DNA of 64,000 bases, taken from Escherichia coli (GTDB taxonomy: Bacteria; Pseudomonadota; Gammaproteobacteria; Enterobacterales; Enterobacteriaceae). The stretch lies in assembly GCF_024502345.1 (NCBI RefSeq), contig NZ_JALDNN010000003.1; one strand, 5' to 3'. The position numbers are program-made. This document shows, in pieces, positions 15,001 to 21,000 of the stretch; the stretch's first letter is position 1; each line of letters opens with the position of its first letter.

Positions 15001-18000
15001 ATTTCATATTTCACTCCGCCGGGTACATCCAACGCTTTAGCGACGGACTCACACAGCAATGACAAATCATTCAGGGTCATTGGGTATTCAACTTCCAGGC
15101 TGTGCAGTGCATTGGCGCTGGCAGCAGCAGCCTTGTCAGCATGACAGGCATTAAAAACGAAAACGGTGGTTTTTTCTTGAATAGGCATAGTGCAATCCTC
15201 TGAATAATTAGCCCTGTGATCAGGGCGGTTTTTGATTAAATTTAAATGTTCGTTTTCAATAATTAGTGAATCTGTTAATCGGGTTGTGACTTATCATTTT
15301 CTCCAACCGAAGTGCTGTCGAGAAATGACCATTCTTGTTTGGGGCTTTTATATAATGCACTAGCCTCAGTACTCATCCACGACTCACAGGCTTTATAAGT
15401 CATGCCTTCCTCTCTAACGCGGTCCTTAAAATACGCCCAGGCTTGCAGATCAAGCGGCTGATACTCTTTCAGCGACTGGTCAAGCCTTTCCTTCCAGATT
15501 TTCTTCCGATGAGTAAAATGAGGAAAAGCCAGGAATGCATAACTACCTGCAACAAAAAAAAAGAACAGGAGTCCGCCCCATAGAGAATGTTTGAAAAACA
15601 CCAGTCCTGGGAAAATCCATGCCACAATGGCAACAAATAAAAGAAGGTGCTCCTTCCCAGTAGGTTTATTAAAATGCCAGGAAATTGCAATACACTTTAA
15701 TTTACTAAAGTGATTTTGTTTCTCCTTAATATCGGTCATATATCAGTCCTTACTTATAAAAAAATGGTTATTATTAGTCTGATGTAAAAGTTACTTTTCA
15801 AAACAGTCCCTTTAACGAATTCCGCACCTGCGCTCATTACAACACACACCATTCGGCGCTTTTTCCGTTAACGGGGCTATTTTCACGTTTTTTGCACGTA
15901 TGTCTGATTTTGCTGGTGGGCTCACGCCAGCAGGCGGACCATACGTTTCAACAGAGGCCTTAACAACGCCGCCGTCCTCTCCCGGCATTCATCCACATGC
16001 CGGAACCCCGTCTTTTTCGAAGACTGGGGGCCGGATAACATCCGCAGCTCCCAGATGACTTCCCGTAAGGTTCCTTCGCGCTCCGGCGAAATACACCCGG
16101 CTAATGTCTCCAGAAAGCGTTTTCTTACGGCCCGGTAATACAGACGTTCTTCCGGTTGCTGTGACGAAATCCGCAGGTTACAGAGGGTCAGGACAGCGTC
16201 AAGAGTCCTTGCCTTCAGTTCGTCTCCCGTCCGGGCCAGATGTAGCTGTTGTTCTGTCTCCAGTTGCGTCGTTATCCACCCCCCCAGAGGGGTTTTGTTG
16301 TAGGTGTGCAGTGCCACACAGGCCGCAACACAACACCAGAAGCGCAGTTTCTGCCGCTGCCCCCGCAGTTTGCGGGCTACGAGCAAGCGATAATCGCTGT
16401 CGGTCAGGATCTTGAAACGGCGGCTGGCGAGCAGAGACGGCAGCGGCGTCTGGTCGTTAATGCCAAGACGTGAATAGGCCTGCCCGCGTTGAGCGAGTCG
16501 ATGGTACACCGCACCTTTCCCCCGCGAAATTCGGACGGCGCCGTATCTAAGCAGGTACTGTGCCGCCGCCACAGGGGTAAACTCACCGTCAGACACACGC
16601 TGGCGTAATCCGTCATATTCATGCCAGATAATCCAGGATGCCGTGTCTTCATCGACCGTCAGCTCATCCTCTTCTTCGAATGCAACGATGTTCAGGCCTT
16701 CCCCGCTACTCATCAGACTGCGGGAAGCTCGCTCATCCTCCCGACCGTCAAAATAGGCTATTTCGGATGACGGATCGGACAGCCCGTCAAATGACGTCCC
16801 GATACGGCCTTCCGGCAACTTCATCCAGCGTGGTGCTGGCATCGGCGTGCGGGGTACTGGTTGCATAGCTGGCTCATCGTCGAGAAGATCCAGTGCCCCC
16901 CCTTCCCACACCTGGCGGTAAAGTTCAATGGCACGAAATGGGCGCGGGTTAAAGCAATGCAGTGACCAGAGAAAGTCGATATGCAGCACGTTAGCCTCCT
17001 GCACCAGTCGAAACTGCGGCTCCGACATGCGGCGGTTATGCGCGGTATCTTCGATCTCGCCTGAAAGTAACTTTTCATGCACCGCTGCGGCCCGCTGAGC
17101 CTCCACGTAATCGAGGCTGCAACAGATATGGAACAGTCTTTCGGTCAGGGACGACGAGAACACATTGGGCTGAAGACGCACATACCCGCCCTCAAACACT
17201 TTGCGTCCGATATAATCCCGAAGGCTCCAGTCGTACTGAATTTTGGTCAGGAAACGCTGAAGGCGGTTGAGACCAGCCTGGTAGCCGTACTTCTCAGGGT
17301 CAGTGCGGAGTAAGGTTTCCATCGAGTGATCAATGCCGACGGCGCAGCATAGCGAGCATCCATAGCGAGCGCCGCAGGCAGAAGACCGGACAGTGGATTT
17401 CTCCGGCGTCCAGATACATTCCCCGGTCGCGTCTTTGTAAAGCGTGGCGAGGCTGAAGTTGTCCGGCAAAAAGCTTGGCAGCGGAAATCGCGCCAGAGAA
17501 CCACAGGCCATCAGAAATGACCAGATATCCTGTGCCCGCCACTCTTTCACCGGGTACAGTTCGCCGCCGTGCTCCGTGAGCGAGACGCTGTCCGCCTGCC
17601 CGCCCATTCTTAGGATGTTGTCTGCCCGACGGGCGCTCTCATCATCGCGGGAACCCAGCATCAGGCACACTTTGTTGCGGACAGAAGCAGGTGCATTTTT
17701 CAGATAACGGGCTTTGGCCTGGCGCAGTGGAGAACGCTTTAGATCTGTAGCGCATTGACGCGTAGAAGAATTTGTCCAGGTTGGAAGTCCACGCCCGGTC
17801 AGAATGCGTCCGACCCAGCTCTGGGTCATGGACGGGCGGGCCACAAGGACGGTCAAAGGCAGTTCTTGTTCGGCAATAAAGGCTCTGAGCTGGCTGAGAA
17901 CCTGCGTGGCCTGATGATGCATCTCAGGGTTTTCAATCAGGGTGTCAGACATCTGAATGAAGTGGTGCTGGCTGACGTTCGACCCGTTTCGTACTGCACG

Positions 18001-21000
18001 GATCAAGGCCATAAGGAACAAGTGCAGTAGCGAGTGAGAGTCTTTCCCGCCGCTGTAGCCGACGCACATGGTCCAGCCTTCGGTAATCGCATGATAAATG
18101 GCACTGGTTGCCGTCGTCACGCGCGAAGCGAGACTGATCGGCTCACCGGCATCAGTATAATTCAGATCCGCATCGGTCTTCAGTGTCTGCCAGACATCGC
18201 CCCATTTATCCTGCGTCAGAATGGCAGCGTTAGCCGCCTCAGAAAATTGAATTTCTGAGGGTAATTCAAGGAATGTTTCTTTCATTTCGATATACATATT
18301 ATTTCCTGAATTTGGCTTTCGCTGTATTGTCGCGATATTTATTAAATCCATTTAATATCTTCAGCGCAATATGTGAAGCTAAAAATAGTTAAATTGAAAT
18401 CATGCCAATTTAATTAAATAACACTGAACAAATAAAATTACGCGGCAATAAATATATTATGTTCTCCACGCTCTCACGAATACTGCTGGGTAATTAAAAC
18501 CGTCGCATTTGATTCCAGCTCTGCCAACGGAATTAGGGGCGTATTGAGCATCATGTCATCGCCGCAATGACGGGGTACAGCCGTCAGATGAAATGATTCT
18601 TTCATGACCCGGATGGAAGTTGTTTCCGTGCGGCAGGAGGGCATTACGTCCCGGAGCATCGTTTCCTGTCCGCTGCTGTCACTTTCAATAAACGCAGCCT
18701 GCGACATGAGAACCTCAATGTCCTCTTCCAATGTTTCGGACCAGTGGCAGTCATAGAAGAAAAACTCGGCGGCGTACAAATCATTTTCTTTCACGTATGC
18801 CGCCAGTTCACGGATACGCTTAGCCAGCGACGTATCAATGGAAAAGAAGACGCTTTGCGGGACATCACTCGCAAATTCATTGATGCAGCTAGCGGACAAA
18901 ATCAGGATTTTATTGGTCATTTTCAGCTCTCCATGCCACCGGCTGTTCCGGTGGCAATCAGGGATTATCAGGCAGTCACGGGGCACAATTCGTCAAGTGA
19001 AGGCAGTAATTTGCTCAGGCTTTCGTACACGACGGGCATCAATTCAGTGACGCTGTGAAGCGCCATGCTGGTATTGTCTTCTTCGCTGAGAATGATAACT
19101 CCATCCTCACCAGGATTGTCGGGCGTGCTCTCGTCAGAGGCCAGGCGGTGGCGTGCAACGTCATAAGCCGATTCTGATTTTTTGCAGCTCATCAGATAGC
19201 ATTGAGTGTATGTGTATTCGTGGTTGTACTGGTTCACTTTCACCAACGCATACTGAACACCGGCATCATGAGCTTCGTTCATCAGGCGAGAAAAATTAAA
19301 GCCTTCTTCGTAGTGGTGTGTATCTTTAGTCACCACAATAGTCGCACCGCCGAACTCGTTTTCGCGTGGTCGGTCGCAGACGAAAGCGGCATTGATTGTG
19401 ACCATCTCAGGCAGGTTAAACACCGACAACACGGCAGTTGTTACCGCGATAGCGTGGTCGAGGTTAATGCTTTCATCATGGCAGATTGCCAGGCCTTTAC
19501 CGGTGATTTCCGCTTTGAGTTCCAGCTCGTAATTGTCTTCTGGTGACTCCGACTGACCAAAAGTCGGCTCAAACGGATCGCACTCCGGGTGGTTCTGAAT
19601 AATACCCAGGACAAGCAATTCAGTGAGGGAACACTCTGAAACCGGTTTAGACAGCAAGTGTTCACCTTCCGCCACATCCGTGTCTGTAACATACGCAATC
19701 GCGTCCAGTGCCATCTGTGCCTGTTCCTGTGAACAGAGAATTGTGAAGGATGCCTGAGTGTAATTGTTCGCCATTGCATAACTCCTTATTTAATTAAATG
19801 TGATTGCTGTCTGTGAATAGATAATATCAAAACAGATACCTGCACCTAATAACCAATAATGAAATATGTTCGAAATTTTTATAGAGCAGACAGCGCCATA
19901 TTTAATAATCCAACTTTTATTCTGGATACGGTGTAAAATAAATATACGGGAAAACAAAAAACCGCCACAAGGGCGGAATTTATTAGACGGGAAAGATTTG
20001 GTTATACGGTATGTGTCAGGGAGGAAGCAATGAGCCTGTCTGGTAACAGTGATTGTAGGGACGCAGACGAAATAACAAGCACCTGATCCAAGTGCGCTAT
20101 ACCTTCGTCGATATGTTGCTGGAATGCCGCTTCAGCTTCACCGCAGGAGTCCGCTTCGACCAGCATCACCTCTTCCTCATCATCAAACATCATGCGGCCT
20201 GAGATAATATACAGTCGGCTTAAGTCCGGGGTATTTACAGCGATGCCCTGTTCGTTAATCATCATTTTTCTCCGCCTTCAATTTTTAAATTTGTCAGTTC
20301 TGCTACGTGTAAAAAACAGCATCAGCCCTGTAAACCCGGACAGGTATCAACGTAGCTCATTGGTTTGCCGATCGCGGCGCTCAGGCGAAGGATTTCGCCG
20401 ATGGAGACGTACCGAAGCATTTCCGAACGCCCGTGTTTCTGGTATTCATCCACCGACATAGTGCGCCAGTCCTTGTGCGGTGCGGTTTTGCACAACTGCC
20501 AGTTGTCGGCAGTGGTCGGGCGACGCAGGACATATACACCCAGCGAAGGCGTGAGGCCACTGCCGAATGCCTGCTCCACCACAATACGTACTTCAGAGCC
20601 GTCGGGGCGTTTCAGTGTCTGAGTAATTTTAGTAATGAGCTGTTCGGATTCCATACTATTAACCTCGACCGTCAGTTGGGTTGCTGTAGGGATATTTTAC
20701 CAAAGTCGGCTCTCTGGCTAATAAGTAAGAAGTGATTTTTTTCATTCATTGAAGTTTCTTTCATATGGAATGAATATTAATTATTTAAACTGACTCGGCC
20801 TATTTTAATTATTATTAATCAGGGTATTTAATGTGCAAATTGGCAGGGCGCTGAATTACCGGGCATCCATTGCCCGGACAGTTTATTAAAAAAAACTGAT
20901 AATGCCCCGCCGGAGAATTACGCCAATTCCTGTGAAGGCATGGTCTGGCTGAAAAGTTACTTTTCCCGGTTGCCCTGCCTTGATCCCGTATCGTTTATAC

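Follow-up and report, generated by a model that had tools for sequence, protein, structure and literature searches.

A DndC-like protein family of conjugative plasmids with a private C-terminal domain as a candidate stand-alone DNA sulfur-modifying enzyme

The DNA phosphorothioate (PT) enzyme DndC (DptC; TIGR03183) is encoded in chromosomal defence islands, in an operon with the ABC ATPase DndD and with DndE, to which DndA and DndB may be added. Here we describe a DndC-like gene from a 64,000-nt stretch of Escherichia coli DNA (contig NZ_JALDNN010000003.1 of assembly GCF_024502345.1), referred to below as the window, to which all our gene coordinates and strands apply. The gene (15922-18297) belongs to a group of genes on the minus strand and encodes a protein of 791 amino acids (aa), whose relatives are carried on conjugative plasmids and in arrays resembling integrative and conjugative elements (ICEs). 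An earlier interpretation made from the DNA alone (hereafter the sequence-only reading) had seen in it an orphan DndC-like protein with a possible DNA-modification or anti-restriction function. Our analysis points, at a rough probability of 0.4, to a catalytically intact, distinct and so far uncharacterised DndC-type branch, whose member in the window would act as a stand-alone DNA sulfur-modifying enzyme aiding plasmid establishment.

The protein and DndC have in common the SGGKDS motif, five conserved cysteines and approximately 390 alignable residues, and DndC is its best-scoring characterised family in both NCBIfam and PADLOC. The two differ in their C-terminal parts, as the last ~130 residues of DndC (~380-520) are replaced here by an unrelated domain of ~200 aa and a tail of 150 aa. 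They also differ in genomic setting, with DndD and DndE absent both from the window and from the neighbourhoods of the relatives, and with conjugative elements as carriers instead of chromosomal islands.

SspD and BrxP, the PT writers of the Ssp and BREX type 4 systems, have the same fold and PP-loop as the DndC-like protein, and BrxP presents a case in which the same catalytic domain has changed partners and become joined to a domain for DNA targeting (PMC12914056). However, the match to BrxP was marginal (E 1.8e-5, 21 bits), SspD gave none, and both the DUF4007 domain and a BrxC or SspC neighbour are absent here. The sole precedent that we found for a lone PT writer is TdpC of the Tdp system, reportedly from thermophiles, with which the family was compared by description. 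According to the articles that cite the original work (An et al., Nat Chem Biol 2025; cited in PMC12914056 and PMC13223576), TdpC performs PT synthesis without a nucleoside triphosphatase (NTPase) of the DndD, SspC or BrxC type, as would the stand-alone family here, and tdpABC requires tdpC alone for this synthesis (PMC12914056). Tdp is a defence system with TdpAB as restriction partners, whereas no such partners surround the DndC-like gene. No TdpC chain was among the results of the PDB searches.

Pairs of the IbrA/IbrB and DndB/DndC types are matched only by one Citrobacter/Enterobacter clade of the family, in which a DGQHR/DndB gene lies upstream. No DUF3440 domain was found in the Pfam scan, no ParB-like gene adjoins the DndC-like gene in the window, and a DndB/DGQHR neighbour is not adjacent in IncHI1, in an IncC-like locus or in most other contexts. 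A further comparison concerns the ArdA proteins and orphan methyltransferases of plasmid leading regions (Samuel et al., 2024; PMC11541004). Relatives of the DndC-like gene keep similar company (ArdA, N6 and C5 methylases, DUF4942, SSB) and the proposed logic, namely pre-emptive self-protection of incoming DNA, is also similar, but leading-region proteins work by methylation or DNA mimicry, while the chemistry of the DndC-like protein would be sulfur insertion. The DndC-like family is not mentioned in that survey of leading-region anti-defence genes, and our literature search found no paper characterising it. What was known before is the catalytic core, together with a generic annotation on thousands of plasmids; what appears to be new is a C-terminal domain private to the family, the clamp-binding tails of the relatives and an existence as a stand-alone gene on conjugative elements.

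Catalytic core, C-terminal half and terminal peptides

The protein (WP_000275146.1) is labelled in RefSeq as a 'phosphoadenosine phosphosulfate reductase family protein'. As the sequence-only reading had noticed, it carries the PP-loop motif SGGKDS (residues 82-87) and a DndC-type cysteine cluster, consisting of C182 (RQC), C294 (GEC) and C308/C314/C317 (ACGARYGCSLC). All five cysteines of the conserved DndC set (RWC..LK, EC, SCG..R.GC..C) are thus present, and they align with C141, C248, C259, C266 and C269 of DndC. In DndC this set holds a [4Fe-4S] cluster, and the enzymes are PP-loop ATP pyrophosphatases. Among 36 diverse family members, S82, G84, K85, D86 and S87 were found to be invariant and G83 variable, while C182, C314 and C317 were invariant and C294 and C308 at least 90% conserved. 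Conservation of this extent argues for a working enzyme, presumably one that inserts sulfur in an ATP-dependent manner.

Profile searches consistently brought up DndC and its like. In NCBIfam the protein matched PRK06850 (3.8e-37) and DndC (8.4e-33), with the tRNA thiolase TtcA at only 0.006, while in PADLOC it matched DndC at 2e-37. A PADLOC type II methyltransferase (MTase) model, PDLC03333, also covers residues 63-337 of the DndC-like region (E 4e-23), and the Pfam family PAPS_reduct (PF01507) reached an E-value of 3.2e-5 only. When profiles of the 36 diverse homologues and of nine true DndC proteins were compared by hhalign, residues 53-446 of the query corresponded to DndC 12-380 with a probability of 100, an E-value of 2e-47 and 26% identity. 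A tRNA thiolase or asparagine synthetase family, either of which would have placed the protein elsewhere, was not indicated.

Nevertheless, the scores stay well below the family cut-offs, both for DndC (113.9 vs 290.4 bits for the equivalog TIGR03183) and for PRK06850 (128.2 vs 536 bits). Membership in DndC was therefore rejected, given these scores, an alignment that stops at query residue 446 and the replacement of the C-terminal third. The DndC-like identity proposed earlier stands in so far as DndC is the closest family, while DndC membership does not; on profile evidence the protein is a DndC-like enzyme, DndC proper being excluded. An assimilatory PAPS/APS reductase (CysH) was likewise rejected on the basis of the absent ECG[LIV]H motif, the lack of a CysH match in NCBIfam and the weak Pfam match; the CysH and CysD models gave nothing at an E-value of 0.01 in the NCBIfam scan. 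Neither a profile search of PDB sequences nor Foldseek returned a solved structure of DndC type, and the Foldseek matches of the N-terminal domain were to the PAPS domain of FAD synthase, CysH and TtuA.

The excess length of about 250 aa over DndC that had been remarked upon is real (791 aa vs ~435-550 aa among the DndC sequences recovered), but, contrary to what had been supposed, this protein is not alone in having the C-terminal extension, since about 200 aa of it form a domain common to a large family. When 1.84 billion cluster representatives were searched with a profile built from residues 425-791, 426 clusters at 50% identity were recovered, of which 148 scored below 1e-30. In full-length proteins with this domain (~560-950 aa) the match was located at approximately residues 350-700, always behind the place of the DndC-like core. 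AlphaFold2 modelled the whole protein with a pLDDT of 87.8 and the C-terminal part with one of 86.8, both confident values. For residues ~447-640 neither a Pfam family nor a solved structure of similar fold was found, and in AFDB50 the C-terminal part matched its own family alone. The tail (residues 641-791) is lineage-variable and is missing from relatives of 595-669 aa.

Two metagenomic members, P0201 (956 aa) and P0130 (885 aa), possess an additional C-terminal domain of ~350 aa with a 'LIDSGAFT' motif, which in P0201 weakly matches a PHROG for queuine tRNA-ribosyltransferase (E 4e-5). Through such a domain the family might be connected with DNA modification of the deazaguanine type. A TGT- or DpdA-like identity was not accepted for it, however, as this one weak PHROG match found no confirmation in Pfam, PDB or PADLOC.

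Short peptides at the very C-terminus form the second peculiarity of the family. The consensus for binding to the beta sliding clamp, reportedly set out by Dalrymple et al. in 2001, is QL[SD]LF or QLxLxL at a terminus. Many relatives (proteins P0026-P0249) terminate in QLDLF, QLSLF, QMDLF, QLRLF or QLxLxL. The strict motif was present in the last 12 residues of 21 of the 94 non-redundant full-length representatives, compared with a mean of 0.19 and a maximum of 3 in 1000 shuffles of the tails, and it occurred inside the sequences just 14 times in 62,000 residues. A relaxed motif was found in 46/94 representatives and in none of the nine true DndC proteins. Moreover, 30/94 representatives end in -AA, a dipeptide with a frequency of 0.9%. 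This ending resembles the ssrA-type signal recognised by ClpX and suggests that the protein may be short-lived and degraded by ClpXP. Both kinds of tail can be seen in IncC-like, other Enterobacterales and Vibrio relatives (e.g., ...QGELFIAA and ...QVVLSLAA, with ...QRGQQGLSLAA as an IncC-like tail); the IncHI clade has neither the clamp peptide nor the -AA ending.

Distribution and genomic neighbourhoods of the family

A tblastn search with the DndC-like protein detected relatives on 2,462 of the 72,556 PLSDB plasmids (3.4%), and 2,038 of these 2,462 are conjugative. Copies of at least 99% identity are carried by ~210 plasmids (IncHI1). Another ~980 plasmids fall at 60-80% identity, typically with copies ~75% identical on 230-300-kb plasmids of Escherichia, Salmonella, Klebsiella and Enterobacter, a group that we take to be IncHI2. 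The remaining ~1,200 plasmids, below 60%, include those of Pseudomonas, Burkholderia, Vibrio and Aeromonas as well as copies ~48% identical on 135-200-kb plasmids with the gene order Dcm methylase, HD phosphohydrolase, primase, from which we assume the latter to be IncC. Further members were encountered in a species-level genome scan, in Burkholderiales, Methylophaga, Thermodesulfovibrio and a Saccharibacteria metagenome-assembled genome.

The 4.5-kb interval 15275-19774, which holds the gene and its immediate neighbours, recurs at 99% identity or more in 213 plasmid records. These come from Escherichia, Salmonella, Citrobacter and Klebsiella, and almost all of the plasmids are conjugative. 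Five such records examined (among them pLAO65, H7, H13 and H16) were MOBH, with IncHI1A in three of the four that were replicon-typed. The DndC-like protein is also 99.9% identical to the copy of plasmid pHCM1 from Salmonella Typhi CT18 (UniProt Q935R1). Owing to these near-identical records and to the pHCM1 match, the window is IncHI1 backbone. The gene had been placed in an accessory array; if accessory is taken to mean rare, the term does not apply, as the gene is part of the IncHI1 backbone and as frequent in PLSDB as stated above.

Insertion sequence (IS) elements recur at the gene in otherwise identical plasmids (loci L038-L040), IS903B and IS1 at or just inside its 5' end (AT-rich intergenic region 18298-18473) and likewise ISCro1 just downstream (15740-15921). 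In addition, lineages ~71-93% identical, presumably IncHI2, often retain residues ~313-791 only.

The absence of dndA, dndB, dndD and dndE nearby, as had been asserted, was borne out by several searches. No Dnd partner was revealed by NCBIfam, PADLOC and PHROG scans of the nine neighbouring proteins of the window or by the PGAP annotation of pLAO65 within +/-20 kb. Searched by tblastn, the window gave no match to a plasmid DndB, to the small proteins flanking the gene in the Citrobacter clade or to the neighbours from the IncC-like locus.

When the open reading frames of ~30 relatives' loci were clustered, nothing beyond sub-clades was common to them except the DndC-like gene itself. Certain domains nevertheless recur around it, namely N6 and C5 DNA methylases, DUF4942, ArdA, SSB, HU, DnaB, primase, Metallophos and HD phosphohydrolase; N6_Mtase, DUF4942, SSB, HU and DnaB were recorded among 96 neighbours. 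For example, ArdA adjoins the relative in one locus (L009) and lies nearby in another (L003), while a Dcm methylase and a primase are near the IncC-like relative (L002). Genes of these kinds are what plasmid establishment and anti-restriction arrays usually contain. The expectation of DNA-associated company thus held good, with relatives lying among ArdA, orphan methylases, SSB and DndB.

In a single clade, that of the 669-aa proteins on Citrobacter and Enterobacter plasmids, a PF14072 DGQHR/DndB gene lies directly upstream. This arrangement is seen in L003:4470-8380 and also in L004 and plasmids H26-H34, the plasmids being of 55-390 kb. In L003, paralogous proteins of ~100 aa stand on either side of the 669-aa homologue (5558-5884 and 8078-8380), and in loci of this type an N6-methylase-like gene and ArdA follow a few kb downstream.

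The gene unit in IncHI1 plasmids

In the window, four minus-strand genes bracketed by terminator-like hairpins (Table 1) look like one transcription unit, because such hairpins lie just outside both ends. The flanks of the DndC-like gene agree with the sequence-only reading, with two proteins upstream (the first of them acidic, as stated there) and a membrane-type protein with two helices downstream, all on one strand. The 268-, 148- and 154-aa proteins had no match in Pfam, NCBIfam, PADLOC or PHROG scans. As for the start of the DndC-like gene, the annotated ATG gives 791 aa and an alternative upstream ATG at 18351 gives 809 aa (+18); the 791-aa start is the choice of RefSeq and agrees with the N-termini of homologues.

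Table 1. Features of the DndC-like gene unit, listed in the direction of transcription
Feature	Coordinates	Strand	Remarks
Terminator-like hairpin CCGCC-CTTGT-GGCGG followed by a T run	19962..19976	-	Upstream of the 268-aa gene; upstream edge of the unit
268-aa acidic protein	18968..19774	-	Isoelectric point (pI) 4.3; 44 D+E vs 13 K+R; strong Shine-Dalgarno
148-aa acidic protein	18474..18920	-	pI 4.4; second upstream companion
DndC-like protein, 791 aa, WP_000275146.1	15922..18297	-	From profile searches and RefSeq annotation
DndC-homologous core, residues 53-446	16960..18141	-	hhalign; PAPS-reductase-fold PP-loop domain and helical domain common to DndC
Family-specific domain, residues ~447-640	16378..16959	-	alpha/beta, pLDDT mostly >80; replaces the C-terminal third of DndC
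Basic all-helical tail, residues 641-791	15925..16377	-	pI 10.1; ends ...LLKRMVRLLA
154-aa protein	15275..15739	-	Two adjacent hydrophobic helices (residues ~31-50 and ~53-75)
Terminator-like palindromic hairpin GCCCTGATCACAGGGC	15211..15226	-	3' of the 154-aa gene; downstream edge of the unit

The genes of the two acidic proteins are syntenic upstream of the enzyme gene in four relatives' loci (L011, L012, L014 and L015), and on IncHI-type plasmids they are kept there down to 54% enzyme identity. Both proteins diverge faster than the enzyme, with 47% and 40% identity for the 268-aa and the 148-aa protein, respectively, where the enzyme retains 62%, and ~30% and 32% where it retains 54%. Homologues of the 268-aa protein are confined to large IncHI-type contigs, the distribution of the 148-aa protein is narrow, and for neither were relatives detected outside IncHI-type plasmids. 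On a more distant IncHI-like plasmid (L012) the 268-aa gene exists as a diverged tandem pair (L012:2119-2955 and 3464-4270), whose products are 33% and 30% identical to the protein of the window; this would be consistent with rapid diversification of this companion. Only in IncHI1 does the 154-aa gene follow the enzyme gene; L011 and L012 lack it.

The DndC-like gene is an outlier in base composition, with 56.4% GC and 62.6% GC at third codon positions, whereas the window has 47.6% GC and the neighbouring 154-aa gene 41.5%; the first 52 codons of the DndC-like gene have only 45% GC. Just downstream of the unit, a 74-aa acidic protein (14964-15188) has a 57%-identical paralogue ~6 kb away (8887-9075), and L011, L012 and L015 likewise retain it downstream of their DndC-like gene. 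In the window it is followed by three phage-family genes on the minus strand (13262-14856), encoding a 243-aa protein (phrog_874, E 6e-77), a 103-aa protein (phrog_30913) and an HNH endonuclease (13262-13798; phrog_2118, E 3e-54, with weak PtuB and retron-HNH matches), and then by a DUF6012 protein (12623-13231). The three genes look like a captured phage module within the plasmid array.

Elsewhere in the window, three ParB-HTH paralogues with a mutual identity of 26-30% are encoded on the minus strand (1572-2777, 41183-42346 and 45571-46647). The sequence-only reading had pointed to three such ParB-fold paralogues, as proteins of this fold are the usual partners of PAPS-reductase-like enzymes in DndB/DndC- and IbrB/IbrA-type pairs. 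The three paralogues do exist, but they lie 13-27 kb from the gene, the nearest at ~13 kb, and are not DndB- or IbrB-type neighbours, so that the idea of a ParB partner finds no support in this plasmid. A Dam-family methylase (42706-43530, plus strand) is situated in the block between the second and the third paralogue, and a DUF4942 protein (39247-41001, minus strand) just past that block. The window also encodes large Ig-domain proteins and a RepB-family replication initiator, which we take to be RepHI1A, and its gene cluster at 50-59 kb is presumably part of Tra2, judging by its position on the R27 map.

Proposed function, alternatives and significance

For the stand-alone DNA sulfur-modifying enzyme that we favour, the following mechanism may be envisaged. 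The target would be adenylated using ATP and sulfur would then be inserted, with the host cysteine desulfurase IscS as the supplier of sulfur. DNA is the most likely substrate, because DndC is the closest family and many relatives possess clamp-binding tails, and also because PDLC03333 matches the DndC-like region and DndB, methylases and ArdA occur as neighbours. Within DNA the modified position would most likely be the phosphate backbone, as in Dnd, Ssp, BREX-4 and Tdp, or else a base. The private C-terminal domain would assume the targeting role that DndD and DndE play for DndC, and in many relatives the C-terminal peptide would tie the enzyme through the beta clamp to replicating DNA. Clamp tethering has a parallel in eukaryotes, where DNMT1 is tethered to PCNA. 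The sulfur mark could then allow the plasmid to survive restriction, or a defence that senses phosphorothioates, after transfer. The IncHI1 version would have lost the clamp peptide and be co-transcribed with the two fast-evolving acidic proteins, which may be lineage-specific partners of this enzyme. In its most specific form, this proposal would make the family a new single-polypeptide class, with a DndC-type core and its own targeting domain, clamp-tethered in many members, that marks DNA during replication without an NTPase and serves as a self-marking anti-restriction device at establishment; we regard this specific form as doubtful.

Several observations weigh against the enzyme being a stand-alone writer that aids establishment. 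PT synthesis by Dnd, Ssp and BREX-4 needs a P-loop NTPase (DndD, SspC or BrxC), and PT dinucleotides were absent from gut isolates with a PAPS-reductase gene and without an NTPase partner (PMC12914056). In our dataset, neither DndA, DndD or DndE nor a P-loop NTPase partner was found in any of the ~30 contexts. The 791-aa protein itself ends in ...LLKRMVRLLA and shows no clamp motif in its last 60 residues, so that DNA tethering is carried over to IncHI1 from the relatives. Copies truncated at the 5' end and devoid of the PP-loop occur in some lineages, and IS insertions adjoin the gene, which shows that the gene can be lost and that its function is dispensable in those hosts. A distance of ~65 kb separates mobI/MobH (144-149 kb) from the gene (213-215 kb) in pLAO65, and a ~15-kb resistance/IS region falls within the 20 kb preceding the gene; an early-entry position in the leading region would thus be conjectural for the IncHI1 gene. 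Finally, no family members were found in IMG/VR viral contigs.

The alternative closest to this proposal retains the enzyme class and the DNA target and replaces backbone chemistry by modification of a nucleobase, either thiolation or an unusual base such as 7-deazaguanine. PP-loop/Fe-S enzymes of like fold (TtuA, TtcA) thiolate bases, and TtuA was among the Foldseek matches; furthermore, the missing NTPase of the Dnd, Ssp and BREX-4 backbone writers fits a different chemistry more easily, and the extra domain of P0201 weakly recalls a fold that inserts deazaguanine into DNA. However, the similarity to DndC is far stronger than that to base-thiolating enzymes, as the TtcA score indicates, and the TGT-like match, apart from its lack of confirmation, concerns a fusion present in 2 of ~150 representatives. 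We consider base modification unlikely.

A rather improbable alternative is that the gene provides the modification half of a plasmid defence or exclusion system, marking resident DNA while a plasmid nuclease attacks the unmarked DNA of phages or rival plasmids. PADLOC does group the protein with defence-system DndC models, Dnd modification modules are often found beside varied nucleases (Rakesh et al.; PMC10853773), and the HNH endonuclease gene lies 2 kb downstream on the same strand. Yet this gene is missing from L011 and L012, no nuclease or other gene is conserved beside the family across the ~30 loci, and it is anti-restriction and establishment genes, not restriction genes, that recur as neighbours.

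We give little credence to a target outside DNA, i.e. thiolation of host tRNA or a sulfur metabolite that would reprogramme the new host. The fold is indeed common to tRNA thiolases and FAD/PAPS enzymes, and in PHROG related phage proteins bear the auxiliary metabolic label 'PAPS reductase', but the TtcA scores are weak, the CysH and CysD models are silent, the CysH motif ECG[LI]H is absent, and the clamp-binding tails and the DndB, methylase and ArdA neighbours of the relatives indicate DNA. Very unlikely is a non-catalytic decoy titrating host IscS or Dnd/Ssp components, or a decaying relic, as the common shortened copies and flanking IS insertions and the GC content suggestive of foreign origin might hint, given full-length copies at least 99% identical in ~210 plasmids and a PP-loop and cysteines (nearly) invariant from Enterobacterales, Vibrio and Burkholderiales to Thermodesulfovibrio and Saccharibacteria, an invariance that points to purifying selection on catalysis.

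The carriers of the family include major vehicles of multidrug resistance, namely the IncHI1 typhoid plasmids (pHCM1), the putative IncHI2 group and the IncC-like family. The clamp-binding tails offer a concrete and experimentally accessible way into the question of how a DNA-modifying enzyme can locate its substrate when it has no dedicated scanning ATPase. If the stand-alone enzyme does write a sulfur mark on DNA, it would represent the second stand-alone writer of PT type after TdpC, it might account for DNA modifications in clinical Enterobacterales that are so far unexplained, and it would give plasmids a novel means of escaping restriction or defences that sense phosphorothioates.

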